Positions 7,106 to 58,051 of a DNA stretch of 64,000 bases are shown here, piece after piece; the first letter of the stretch is position 1, and each line of letters starts with the position of its first letter. The DNA is from Eledone cirrhosa (taxonomy: Eukaryota). A program made the translations under genes and the position numbers. The notes under the pieces were generated by a model that ran no database searches, was not told where the DNA came from, and worked only from the letters and a program-made list of their open reading frames with translations. The DNA lies in the NCBI GenBank assembly GCA_964016885.1, contig OZ024740.1, positions 350,114,001 through 350,178,000 on the forward strand. The letters run 5' to 3'.

Positions 7106-7683
7106 TTGTTATATTTGGGGAGGGTCATATTTGCGTAATATTGCCAGAATTAATAACAGAACACACTCACTGTTTGGTTGGTTTTCGCTTCTCGCTGTCT
7201 TTTATATATATATATATCTGCGATCTAACTTACTCGGTCCTCAATGTTGCCATTGACTGACCGGCGGTCAAAAATAATACAGATACAATATAGACACAAA
7301 CACATATATATAGTTTACATAATTTACATAAATCTTTCGTTGCACATCTGCAACATCGTCAGTGGTGTTATATTCATTGTTCCTCCTGTTGTGTTGTATG
7401 TCTACGCCATTTTTTTTTTTTGTTCAGTCTGTCTATATATTTATTTATTTATTTGCTTGTTTGTTTATCTTATTTTATTTTGTCTTCTTTGCGCATGCGT
7501 TTGCGTGTGTGTATAGTGTTGTGTCTGCTGGGTGACTAGTGCGAAAACCAACCAAACAGTGAGTGTGTTCTGTTATTAATTCTGGCAATATTACGCAAAT
7601 ATGACCCTCCCCAAATATAACAATATCTGTTTCGACACACGATTTCATATAAAAAACCTCGCAAAACTAATTCATCGCCGCTA
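7106..7683. mobile_element. PLE 3'-end fold-back insertion in (TA)n
   Basis: 7106-7187 is inverted at 7541-7622 and the right arm extends to 7683. The left arm equals the 3' UTR of the PLE at 62 kb; HHR core at 7335-7362 (-). Confidence 0.88.
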
Positions 7684-9079
7684 TATAAATATATATATAT
7701 GTATATACACACACACACACACACACACACACACACACACACACACACACACACACACACACACACACACACACACATATATATATATATATATATATAT
7801 ATATATATATATATATATATTTATTAAAATAACAGATTAAAGTTTAAGCAAAGAATCGGTGCCTTCACCCTTAACGGGATCTTCTGAAACTAACAAAGTC
7901 AATCTGTAAACGCAGAACTGCAGAACTGGATATTTCAAAAAACGTTGCGACCGGAGGAAGACAGGAAGACGATACTTTGGTTCGTGGTAACGTTCGCTGG
8001 CAAAGAACGGGAAAAAAAGAATAATACGTCATTAATAGGAGCGGTGAAAAACAATTACGCGCAAAGACAAAACCACGTTTATGGTATAAAAGAGGTCGTA
8101 GACTAATGTTCTCTTAGGTGGTGCATAGAGACGTTCTCTGGCAATGAACGAAAAAACGAAGATAATAAGTCATATGTGGAGCGTGGAGAACAATAGCACG
8201 CAAAGACAAAACCACGTAAATGGTATAGCAGAAATCGTAGACTAAAATTCTAACTAGGAGACCAAATGAATCTCCGCTACAGAGTTAAGAACAAAGTAAA
8301 TAAATACAATACAGAAGTAATAGGAACAAATAAATACATACACGCAAACAGATACGTACATACACAAGCATACGCAAAACCTTACCATGGGTATACAAAA
8401 CCACGCACATATAAATATGTGTGTGTGTGTATGCTTGTGTACAAATAAATAAATAATTATATAAACGTATATAAGTAAATAAATACGTATATAACAAGCG
8501 CACACGCATACCTACATATAAATACACGAATGTTGGGAGACGTAAGTCAACTAAAACAAGAAGTACACATATACGCACACCCACCATACGCACGAACCTG
8601 CACACTCACGCGGACGCAAAACTCCCGTATACACATATATATATATATATATCTTCAGACTGACTGCTAGTGGGATTTTTTCCAGAAGTAGAATTGTGTC
8701 AATGATCAGGAATAAATATTAACTATAAAGTAAAATTATCAGGTTTTATCTATTTTAAATAATGAAAATGACTATTCCCCACAGTAGAAAATGACTATTC
8801 CCCACTGCATGTTATTACTCTAAGGTTTTATACCTTATCGAGTCCTTGGCTGCACTTCTGAATGAATTTGTCGGCTTAGCTGCGGCTCGAGCTTCGAATA
8901 TGCTGTACTTCCATTTGTATATATATATATATATATATATATATATATATATATATATATATATATATATATATATATATATATATATATATATGAAAAT
9001 ATATATATATATATATATATATATATATATATATATATATATATATATATATATATATATAGATAGACACTGGTAATTT

Positions 9080-10300
9080 TTCTGACCGATCTTTGTGGTG
9101 ATATTGTTTCACGGCAACAAACGGTGTCCTTTGCAATGTCCAGAAAGTATTTCCTTTTTAGTACTGTCGTTTCATTATGTAGGTGGTCTGGTGGTTTGGC
9201 TTGTGTACAATCTGTCGTTATGGATAGTGTACTTCTTTGTGTACGCTGGTAAAAAGGAAGACAGTGGACTTGGTACGTACTACTTTAATGTTATTGTGGA
9301 GTCAGGTTTCTAGGTAATTTAAATAGCATTGAAGTATCTGTGCAACAGTGATCAAAACATAATGGGAGAATGTGATTGTGATGCTATCTGATTTTAAAGT
9401 TGTCTGTATATTTTGTTGATGTCATGAATGTATAGATTAAAATGAATTGGTGAAAGGATGACTCCTCTGGATACTTCAGTCAGGGAATTGTATTTCTGGA
9501 AAGTTTCGTAGCATAAGTTTCGTAGTTTGACAGGTATTTTGCTATTTAGTATTTTATGCCGTTTTTTAAGGAGACGTTGAGTAATTTTTTTATACGAGTG
9601 GATAGTAGGAGATGGAATCAAAAGTTTGCTGGCGTTGGAGGTTGTTAGAATTTTACCTGTATTTTTCTTGCTGATGTCATCCTGTATATTATGTGTTAGG
9701 TTTAAGAGTAATGATTTGAATAAGCGTTGTAATTTGATGAAGGTGTGTGTGTGAATTAGTGATATCAAGGATTCATTTTTCTAGAATTTTAGGGATGTCA
9801 TTAAGAGGATGACCTTACATCACTTGGGTTTTTGTTCGGCTTCATAATTATCATATTTCTGCCTAATTTGGGGATTTGTCCGTGTTCGTGGCATGTGTAG
9901 TTGCCGATGTTGGTGAAGCACTAGGAGTTCACGTGTATGTTTGGGATAATGTCAAGCGCTGAGGTTTTTATTAAAAAAAATTTCCTAATTTTTTCAGGGA
10001 GACTGATAGAAAAACGTTGTGGGTGTCAAGATTAAGGTGGAAGCGTATCTTTCGTGTTGGGTTCCTTTCTTCTTTGTGTGGGTTTCGATGGTTCGCTTTT
10101 GAGAAATGTCTTTTTAGGAGAAATACTTTTATTTCGAATGTAAATGTGTAGCAATTGTTGTTATTGATGATGATGGTAATTACTTTATACAGTATTTTAT
10201 TGTTTGTTTTGTATTATACGAAACAAATGTTTGTCAGCTTGCTGTTTTTCTGAGGTTGATTTCTTTTTATATTTCCTTGATGCTGAGTATATTTCGGTTG
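9080..10300 (-). pseudogene. Highly degraded LINE RT remnant
   Basis: EVSRGVILSPIHFNLYIHDI resembles the RT GVxQGxxLSPxLFNLY motif; the minus strand is A-rich. Confidence 0.4.
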
Positions 10301-56715: not shown

Positions 56716-56898
56716 AATTGGTTTCCAAAGTGGGTTCCGTGGGACACAATGGTTCCTCAAAGGAGTGTTTGGGCTCCTGTGAACAAAGGTAGAGGGCTAT
56801 ATTTATATTACGACCATATAACAATATTAGAATTTGAGTTCCCCCAAAACTTTTGAACCAAAAAGGGTTCTGCGTTTAAAATATTTTGGGAAACCCTG
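56716..56898. mobile_element. hAT-Charlie-like MITE
   Basis: Ends tggtttccaaa/tttgggaaaccctg; 8-bp TSD ccttagac/ccctagac. Confidence 0.6.
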
Positions 56899-57711
56899 CC
56901 CTAGACAATACCCCTATCTTGAGTTGTGGAGAATTTTATATATTATACCACTGTGATTCTCCTTCTGCACCGCCTAAGGAAAGCCTCTGCTTCAGGGCGT
57001 GCCTGAATGTGTACACATATATACATGTAAAAGGTTAACCAAACTCATATGAGTTCGTGTGCATATACTGATATGCACATATACTCCTAGATACATATAT
57101 ACACCTAACAGGTCAGCATCTGTCACACACTATGCTGGTCAGCCTGTCACGCTTACGCACACTCTCTTTCATAGACAACAATACACAGACAATAATCCTC
57201 TAACCATAGTCATAGTCTGCTGCGCATCATGATTTTCATACCAACACAGCTGTTAACAAACAAACACACACACCCAAACCCCCATACTGAATTATTCCTG
57301 CCGCCTCAATGATTATCTCCCCTTCTGTAAATCTATACATGTGTCTCGCTCTACCGAAATGGGATGATTTCATCCTATCAAAAATTTTCCCCTTTTCTTT
57401 CTTTACTTACTCTCGTCTATCTTATTAAATCTTCTGTTCTATTCCAAATATTCTCTGTTCATCCTCTCATTCTATCTTCCGATGATAGACTAAAATCCGA
57501 AACAGTAAACTGTTTACATTTTTTTCTTCTCTATCAAGTGTTAAACTCTTATTTATCATTGCATTGTAATTTTTCTTGTTGAATTTCATATATGAATATA
57601 TATAGGTATGCATAAATATACATATGCATACAAGTATATATATATATATATATATATATATATATATATATATATATATATATATATATATATATATATA
57701 TATATATATAT

Positions 57712-58051
57712 AATTGGCGTTGGATGCTTAGAGGGTCCGTATGCGGTAGGCCGTTTGAGCACTCGATGCTCTCACAGAGCAGAGTATGATATCACAAAAA
57801 GAAAGAGAATCAGCGTTGCGACGAATGGAATTTATTAGACATATTACAATCGTTTCTCTGGCGACCAGCTCGAGGAACGATCGATGTGATGATCTAACCT
57901 GACTATGAAAATCGCAAGGTCCTTGCGATTTTCAGAGTCAGGTTCGATCATCACATCGATCGTTCCTCGAGCTGGTCGCCAGAGAAACGATTGTAATATG
58001 TCCAATAAATTCCATTCGTCGCAACACTGATTCTCTTTTTTTTCTGTGATA
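57712..58051. mobile_element. Near-perfect palindromic fold-back in (TA)n
   Basis: Arms at 57789-57919 and 57921-58051 with a 1-nt centre; the left arm is about 77 nt longer. Confidence 0.85.

Follow-up and report, generated by a model that had tools for sequence, protein, structure and literature searches.

Head-to-head 3′ ends of Penelope-like elements in (TA)n microsatellites of Eledone cirrhosa pair a long with a short end and mostly share a candidate start-site hairpin

Introduction

Endonuclease-bearing (EN+) Penelope-like elements (PLEs) are found in genomes as complex insertions with a head-to-head inverted, 5′-truncated copy of the pseudo-long terminal repeat (pLTR), a tail at one end only and a bias toward (TA)n (PMC3846280, PMC8557442). 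Antisense self-priming and endonuclease resolution are the published explanations for the inverted structure and the tail (PMC3846280, PMC8557442); how PLEs make inverted structures and choose internal start sites is presented as open in the available text of PMC8557442 and PMC11167929. Here we analyze 64,000 nucleotides (nt) of the Eledone cirrhosa genome (contig OZ024740.1, positions 350,114,001 to 350,178,000, forward strand; hereafter the window, numbered from its first letter) that contain 13 fold-back insertions of PLE 3′ ends, most of them reduced to little more than their termini.

Like the published insertions, those in the window combine a head-to-head copy, a tail at one end, a hammerhead in the repeat and a (TA)n bias with no target duplication discernible against the (TA)n flanks, plus a GIY-YIG endonuclease placed at the C-terminus and carrying a CX2-5CxxC linker (PMC3846280, PMC8557442). 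They differ in that both arms are cut to 34–560 nt, so that most inserts comprise pLTR only, and in tails of 58–138 nt versus 30–40 nt. A preliminary description of the window regarded the prevalence and minimal size of the inserts as possibly undescribed; layout, one-sided tail and (TA)n bias already appear in these two papers. The layout itself is thus not new; the value of the locus lies in a strict pairing of one long with one short end and in a bulged hairpin shared at the start site as a candidate signal, neither of which was found in the available text of those papers. Our literature search returned no paper that ties PLE inverted structures to twin priming or describes the bulged hairpin, subscription papers, Repbase and picture supplements being outside its scope.

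Two further systems bear on these inserts. In vitro, the Poseidon element PAc from the anole cleaves and extends both target strands, uses two reverse transcription (RT) start sites, one at each limit of the tail, and has been predicted to form a dimer (PMC11167929). Its likeness to the elements described here extends to two internal RT start sites, both-strand cutting and extension, an AT-rich target and a start site placed in a stem-loop, although that stem-loop is AC-rich rather than an RCUC/GAGY bulged hairpin; the available text of the paper draws no link to inverted genomic structure and uses the word “inverted” once, for a blocking base (PMC11167929). Animal non-LTR retrozymes are likewise non-coding type I hammerhead units tied to PLE pLTRs (PMC7229834, 10.64898/2026.07.22.740005), and one family in the window, with a partially tandem unit of 510 nt, may resemble them. 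Retrozymes are described as head-to-tail tandems or monomers, in contrast to the head-to-head arrangement seen here, and “inverted” occurs zero times in the available text of PMC7229834.

A mechanistic parallel comes from outside the PLEs. In LINE-1 twin priming both target strands act as primers, the second anneals internally by a few bases, and the resulting inverted piece is joined centrally via microhomology; the twin-primed segments barely overlap and end in poly(A). The arms in the window, in contrast, overlap by 34–564 nt, lack poly(A) and have both putative start sites at fixed internal positions.

Results

Thirteen fold-backs flanked by (TA)n

The window has a G+C content of 35.5% and is dense in microsatellites; its dispersed SINE and its repeats as a whole are suggestive of an octopus-like mollusc. 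A masked self-BLAST census returned 29 local inverted rows, versus none in each of five block shuffles. Thirteen rows are fold-backs, namely the 11 inserts of the preliminary description, each with an inverted arm pair where it had been placed, and two more at 26024–26365 (X26) and 27694–27975 (X27). We refer to the former as E1–E11 in coordinate order (Table 1). Arm-to-arm alignments of these 11 cover 47–564 nt at 82–100% identity over aligned columns, and none has a (TA)n run at the junction itself. The flanks are (TA)n throughout, save for a (GA)n left of E7 (49838–50547), and homology among the window copies sorts the fold-backs into some 8–9 families, in agreement with the single exception and the roughly eight families first reported. 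Nine other rows are pairs of dispersed copies resembling short interspersed nuclear elements (SINEs) or of one 33-nt repeat, with one row in the SINE group partly overlapping another; three stem from one microsatellite mirror, two are weak palindromes and one is a perfect duplication around (AT)20.

Table 1. Fold-backs and single copies in the window. “Hairpin” denotes the RCUC/GAGY hairpin; strand and remarks are given where assigned.
Element	Coordinates	Strand	Arms and tail	Remarks
E2-family single copy	450-587	-	long-ended	
E1 fold-back	7107-7683		short-ended arm 7107-7541 (minus sense); tailed arm 7541-7622; 61-nt tail 7623-7683	hammerhead core 7362-7334; untailed arm owns spacer; junction overlap 1 nt
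E5-family single copy	7821-8250	-	short-ended	5′ limit not fixed
Single piece, further family	8653-8917	+	long-ended	bulged hairpin ~8817-8843
Single hammerhead-bearing unit	15203-16069	-		core at 15742; starts with UA motif and bulged hairpin
X27-family single copy	17193-17331	-	short-ended	
E2 fold-back	20747-20940		80-nt tail 20747-20826; arms 20827-20881, 20882-20940	hairpin; blunt junction; half hammerhead
X26 fold-back	26024-26365		138-nt tail; arms 26162-26195, 26332-26365	hairpin; putative orientation and spacer owner
X27 fold-back	27694-27975		untailed arm 27694-27817; tailed arm to 27893; 82-nt tail	degenerate hammerhead; without hairpin
E3 fold-back	27992-28621		87-nt tail 27992-28078; tailed arm 28079-28183; long untailed arm ~28178-28621	hairpin; 6-nt junction overlap; hammerhead at 28373; read-through past long end with second hairpin ~28200-28220
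E8-family single copy	28696-28785	-	long-ended	intact GCUC/GAGC hairpin
E4 fold-back	33001-33423		arms 33001-33162, 33171-33328; 95-nt tail	hairpin; outward hammerhead in both arms
E5 fold-back	33794-34249		90-nt tail; tailed arm 33884-34072; untailed arm 34086-34249	hairpin; 13-nt templated insertion
E2-family single copy	44021-44090	-	short-ended	
E6 fold-back (E4 family)	48752-49032		86-nt tail; tailed arm 48838-48907; longer untailed arm	hairpin; hammerhead at 48933; junction other than in E4
E7 fold-back (E3 family)	49838-50547		left arm 49840-49980, stopping 201 nt short of long end, at (GA)n; right part a partial tandem of 62 nt + 510-nt unit	atypical; hairpins after both start sites
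E8 fold-back	50582-52733		81-nt tail; arms 50663-51225, 52171-52733	outward hammerhead-like motif; 945-nt spacer, owner uncertain
E9 fold-back	52746-52928		76-nt tail	arms start at hammerhead core; near-symmetric junction
E10 fold-back	55013-56309		58-nt tail 56252-56309; tailed arm longer	arms of GIY-YIG C-terminus, 3′ untranslated region (UTR) and hammerhead
E11 fold-back	57713-58048		80-nt tail	hairpin; near-perfect palindromic junction (1-nt centre); degenerate hammerhead
PLE copy, E1 family	62062-63917	-	short end at 62062 on (TA)n	open reading frame (ORF) 63917-62598 with RT C-terminal part, CX4CX2C linker and GIY-YIG-type endonuclease; 3′ UTR with hammerhead

The long and the short end

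The preliminary description spoke of two copies of the same sequence joined back to back. The inverted joining is as stated; the copies are not equal, since one arm is 58–95 nt longer at its outer end in 10 of the 11 listed elements and 201 nt longer in E7. This one-sided tail, absent from that description, is the informative feature. Across all 13 fold-backs, 12 have one arm that ends directly on (TA)n (the short end) and a partner that bears a tail of 58–138 nt (the long end), and none is symmetric. If start sites were chosen independently, at least 12 mixed pairs in 13 would arise with P ≤ 0.0017. Short ends also terminate lone copies, at 7821, 17193 and 44021 and again at 62062, where the far end lies outside the window; long ends do so at 450 and 28696. 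Because each kind of end also bounds lone copies, both look like start sites.

PLE identity and orientation

A sequence descriptor allowing at most one mismatch located an outward-facing hammerhead core in nine of the 11 listed elements (E1 and E3–E10), where a putative type I hammerhead motif sits in the terminal repeat in the sense orientation. E2 (20746–20942 as first listed) has no core by the descriptor and, as read from the sequence, retains an outward-facing GAAA/stem III/UC half; E11 (57712–58051 as first listed) is oriented solely by analogy of its tail, and the hammerheads of E11, X26 and X27 are degenerate. The same search gave no convincing inward-facing core in any element, meaning that within the window orientation is not random and the 3′ ends point outward, as had been proposed. 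Among 150 of its 355 rows, an Rfam scan contained no hammerhead family and only microsatellite-driven miRNA matches.

E1 and E10 are tied to the ORF at 63917–62598 of a PLE copy, a link that holds for two of the 13 elements and bears out the earlier association of two families with PLE coding sequence. The E1 arm 7107–7541 matches 62062–62489, the 3′ end of this copy, while E10 has the endonuclease C-terminus in both arms. The ORF, whose N-terminus is missing from the window, has 67 relatives among 1879 candidates, one of which (P0047) is named GIY-YIG domain-containing; it has no Pfam match itself and weakly matches a GIY-YIG ORF at 44839–45312 that is a Pfam GIY-YIG match. Three cysteines of its CX4CX2C linker are invariant across 16 aligned proteins. 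This arrangement differs from the CxCX5C of Hydra, and by its sequence the linker appears to fit the Neptune/Nematis description and not that of Hydra. A profile search with the ORF found nine short metagenome loci, none with usable ends, and no match in prokaryote genomes. For families other than E1/E10 no coding link exists within the window, and the majority are probably hammerhead elements that are non-autonomous and mobilized in trans. The 510-nt unit with partial tandem belongs to the E3/E7 family and lies within the 50–1000 nt of retrozyme tandem units; a full dimer of it is not seen in the window, and the other families yield no unit length. The analysis as a whole supports the identification of the fold-backs as head-to-head 3′ ends of PLEs with an RNA origin, joined 5′ to 5′ after two priming events, much as the preliminary description supposed.

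In one metagenome contig (L005, 1–176), a relative of the PLE ORF opens with a self-inverted stretch that is degenerate (74%) and may represent an inverted 5′ junction.

A candidate signal at the start site

In 11 of 12 elements, alternating TA continues the tailed arm for 3–6 nt at the short end, an overlap between the target and UA-rich RNA. Beyond it, an RCUC...GAGY motif begins 4–16 nt past the short end in eight of 12 tails, versus 0.12 expected from shuffles, the motif having first been noticed in the same tails that were counted. Further copies occur in the sister of E8 and in two elements that stand alone; the closing pairs are A-U in six copies and G-C in the rest. On folding, 13 of 14 copies form the RCUC/GAGY stem, E9 adopting another register. 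A 2-nt bulge on the 3′ side lies right above the stem in 10 of the 14 (0.2 expected with shuffled interiors) and in none of 26 background matches, and it played no part in picking the hairpin copies. Taken singly, the copies have modest z-scores (0 to -3), and those that are related do not count as independent, the bulge being present in about seven lineages. Where E3 and E7 read through the long end, the UA motif and the hairpin appear a second time at a similar offset. A comparison of hits facing toward and away from 127 edges (15 versus 19) is uninformative, as the motif is its own reverse complement, and a MAFFT alignment of the hairpins across families did not succeed. From these sequences we infer that the bulged RCUC/GAGY hairpin may be a start signal located 4–16 nt downstream of the priming site.

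Junctions and spacers

Homology to other copies assigns the spacer between the arms to the untailed arm in E1 (352 nt), E2 (4 nt), E3 (~340 nt), E6 and X27, and probably in X26; in E5, E7 and E10 its owner is the tailed arm, as is probable for E9. E4, E8 and E11 are ties or unassigned. Each arm bears sequence missing from its partner in E1, E3, E6 and X27, a configuration that a single strand folding back cannot yield directly. Overlaps at the junction amount to 0 nt in E2, 1 nt in E1, about 5 nt with one mismatch in E7 and 6 nt in E3, and the 13-nt insertion in E5 is a copy of its other arm. Junctions differ between members of one family (E4 versus E6, E3 versus E7), in the window as in the reads described below, contrary to the fixed junctions of DNA-transposon-style amplification, and the arms differ by substitutions or indels in 12 of the 13 pairs.

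The arms of E6, E7, E9 and X27 end within ~25 nt 5′ of the hammerhead core. Ribozyme-cut 5′ ends were considered as a cause of truncation and rejected, the junctions lying off the hammerhead cleavage sites on reading of the sequence. In E10, the differences between the arms (55215–55400 versus 55860–56090) cluster in the low-complexity 3′ UTR as a 31-nt indel and ~10 substitutions, which may reflect two template variants or local slippage.

Independent reads

The interval 33001–34249 was compared with sequencing runs, of which 14 were listed, 11 contained part of it and four were compared at 88% likeness; no RNA run was among those with the interval, and runs with small word shares (feces, wastewater) do not count as evidence. 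X12 and X13 are reduced-representation reads of two individuals from another study, and run X11 contributed only 15 records; the contigs of X6 are possibly close to the assembly source, and joints found solely in X6 are not independent. The passage from the E5 short end into (TA)n is covered by 2291 and 2449 reads in X12 and X13, with thousands more running on into the tail.

For this interval 143 joints were reported (15 listed), plus 55 with inserted letters (12 listed). Eight listed joints, from X6 contigs only, skip from left arm to right arm and are head to head; the other seven are strand changes of which the direction is not given, and these occur in independent raw reads of two individuals, so that fold-back joints are present in reads as well as in the assembly. 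Mapping was done on 24 rows (14 E5 joints and 10 of the 12 inserted-letter rows, excluding two duplicates and the lone E4 joint): eight lie within 10 nt of symmetric, five have one arm stopping inside the tail and one has an arm stopping at the short site. In X6 contigs, some tailed arms end inside the tail, 45–61 nt from the long end, where the end of the partner arm is not visible. Near-equal cDNA lengths in a few joints (45 versus 47 and 49 versus 51 nt) come from too few rows and were not used. Arm variants listed from the reads are mostly private to one arm, which indicates that the arms were near-identical at birth. The number and variety of junctions weigh against an artefact and against amplification in the manner of miniature inverted-repeat transposable elements (MITEs). 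A 23-nt E5 pattern had no match in metagenome contigs.

Several E5 read joints end in a cluster (33949–33957) that lies 161–164 nt in from the long end and a little 5′ of the hammerhead core; an RT stop site and an alignment edge are both possible sources of this cluster.

Neighbouring elements

Besides the single copies in Table 1, further hammerhead-bearing pieces without an inverted partner lie between (TA)n runs at 29136, 32747, 33625, 40972 and 43836, and 33449–33775 resembles the E3/E7 family. At 32037–32618, a unit of 511 nt flanked by (TA)n runs ends on both sides in a perfect direct repeat of 71 nt, which starts as a hammerhead-like first half with the second half lacking. A tRNA-like SINE (15248–15462) with a perfect 45-nt duplication and a weak Rfam tRNA match at 15291–15361 sits inside the hammerhead element 15203–16069. 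A broken PLE ORF at 44091–45850 encodes RT and GIY-YIG with a CX4CX2C linker, has a hammerhead at 45695 and is directly followed by an 858-amino-acid LINE-type RT ORF with zf-RVT (45849–48425).

A possible old fourteenth fold-back of the E1/E10 group, its arms unconfirmed, spans 25095–25965, with a left-facing tail at ~25095–25165, a right-facing short end at 25893–25965 and SINE copies in between. The perfect duplication at 37153–37388 consists of 98-nt inverted copies, 100% identical, with (AT)20 at the centre, the opposite of the fold-back layout, and no hammerhead was seen in it; it could be an artefact of the assembly or the outcome of snap-back repair at a TA hairpin. A degenerate TA-rich tandem array of ~1 kb at 16070–17100 dominates naive inverted-repeat searches.

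Discussion

The layout, the ends, the junctions and the motif are read directly from the window, and we think it probable that they arise when the PLE enzyme primes two cDNAs, one per strand, at its two start sites, after which the cDNAs are end-joined. Cutting and extension of both strands, two start sites bounding a tail and a predicted dimer have their precedent in PAc, another PLE. On this basis the element's own enzyme, probably dimeric, would cut both strands in (TA)n, and each 3′ end would prime one cDNA, one from the long and one from the short site, the two starts of each event being coupled through the dimer. The target (TA)n may anneal to the UA motif at the priming site, with the hairpin as putative signal; such short-homology priming, for which the candidate is the TA overlap of 3–6 nt present at the short end in 11 of 12 elements, would resemble that of LINE-1. 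Both cDNAs would stop early and leave truncated arms, their ends would be joined by microhomology or templated repair, presumably through host end joining, and the gaps would be filled.

Several observations weigh against this account. E7, with its outer excess of 201 nt and (GA)n flank, does not obey the long/short rule. The first null for the TA overlap gave p = 0.059, inflated by a (TA)11 in E3 and a mis-scored E9, and the refined null, in which none of 200,000 draws reaches the observed count, even when each family is represented once, was post hoc, leaving out runs of at least 8 and correcting E9. Priming by PAc is reported to proceed without target homology (PMC11167929), unlike the UA overlap here. 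Only one family (E3/E7) shows a second hairpin past the long end, and the hairpin is missing from X27, from E8 itself and from E1 and E10, the only ORF-tied elements, which leaves the hairpin families without an identified autonomous partner. Near-symmetric joints (≤8 nt in E2, E4, E9 and E11, 4 of 13 in the window; 8 of 24 in reads) exceed the expectation for independent truncation, an excess that a shared stop site could explain, and later deletion of the palindrome centre could blur the spacer-owner test. In the reads, opposite-strand joints come without a given direction and one joint is 3′ to 3′ or ambiguous (33001/33007), while variants private to single arms mean that two different templates are not demonstrated.

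The near-symmetric junctions and the near-identity of arms at birth are also what would follow if a strand begun at the long end, or an antisense RNA folded back, were copied back to the short end by snap-back self-priming and resolved by the endonuclease, with later central deletions making the spacers unequal. This route, which we judge rather unlikely, has been proposed for antisense templates (PMC3846280), fits the view in print that the tail derives from endonuclease resolution, and yields a single tail per insert without needing a dimer. Without secondary deletion, however, it places the spacer always on the tailed arm, yet the owner is the untailed arm in five demonstrated cases; in E1 the arms are 100% identical over 82 nt and the 352-nt spacer is nonetheless on the untailed arm. 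It also accounts poorly for lone short-ended copies, and the two ends of the tail each serve in vitro as an RT start site, on both strands (PMC11167929).

That every insert lies in or beside (TA)n, and that junction microhomology and one templated insertion are typical of end joining, would suit a host break at a (TA)n cruciform that two PLE cDNAs fill in, with no part played by the PLE endonuclease; the perfect inverted duplication centred on (AT)20 at 37153–37388 hints at fold-back repair at runs of this kind. We give this explanation little weight. Pairing of one long with one short end as strict as this speaks for a coordinated enzyme rather than two chance captures. AT-rich DNA is a substrate of PLE endonucleases in vitro, and the bias toward (TA)n has been tied to the PLE linker (PMC8557442), which is present in the ORF here. 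Cruciform breakage, invoked in the preliminary description, is not needed because the element's own endonuclease explains the cut.

Chance insertion of two independent copies back to back in one microsatellite is very improbable: although lone copies with a long or a short end are frequent in the window and (TA)n runs are shared between families, no junction has (TA)n, symmetric pairs are absent, and the two arms of an insert always come from a single family and are more alike than either is to other copies (E5 arms 98% versus 91–93% to the 7821 copy; E4 arms 93% versus 80–90% to E6). MITEs, which would derive from a DNA transposon that bears terminal inverted repeats and duplicates its TA target and would have been amplified as units, match the inserts in being short, non-coding, hairpin-shaped and TA-flanked, so that the earlier comparison with them stands as to shape and not beyond it; with asymmetric ends (0 of 13 symmetric), no fixed internal structure (junctions differ within families, E4 versus E6 and E3 versus E7, and among 143 read joints, 15 of them listed) and PLE ties through hammerheads and the GIY-YIG ORF, such an origin is scarcely credible. 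Chimeric fold-back reads or another assembly or library artefact can be set aside with similar assurance, for although the region is repeat-rich and no listed read or contig spans the exact window junctions, 12 of 13 arm pairs diverge by substitutions or indels, the one-sided tail recurs in ~10 families, and strand-change joints occur in raw reads of two individuals.

Minimal inserts such as these reduce the PLE product to its two ends and thereby yield two testable rules, a long plus a short start and a hairpin by the start site. They are abundant, with 13 in 64 kb and thousands of reads per family in reduced-representation data, and annotation tools see them as MITEs despite their RNA origin. 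Beyond the pairing of two cDNAs argued above, we tentatively put forward the bolder proposal that PLE integration may be an obligate asymmetric twin priming, in which a dimeric RT-endonuclease would bind two tandem UA-plus-bulged-hairpin signals ~60–140 nt apart on the RNA, with one strand of the cut (TA)n serving each subunit as primer and the tail corresponding to the inter-signal distance. If true, a single reaction would account for both the inverted pLTR and the one-sided tail, and a short cis signal would let diverse non-autonomous hammerhead RNAs enter TA microsatellites.

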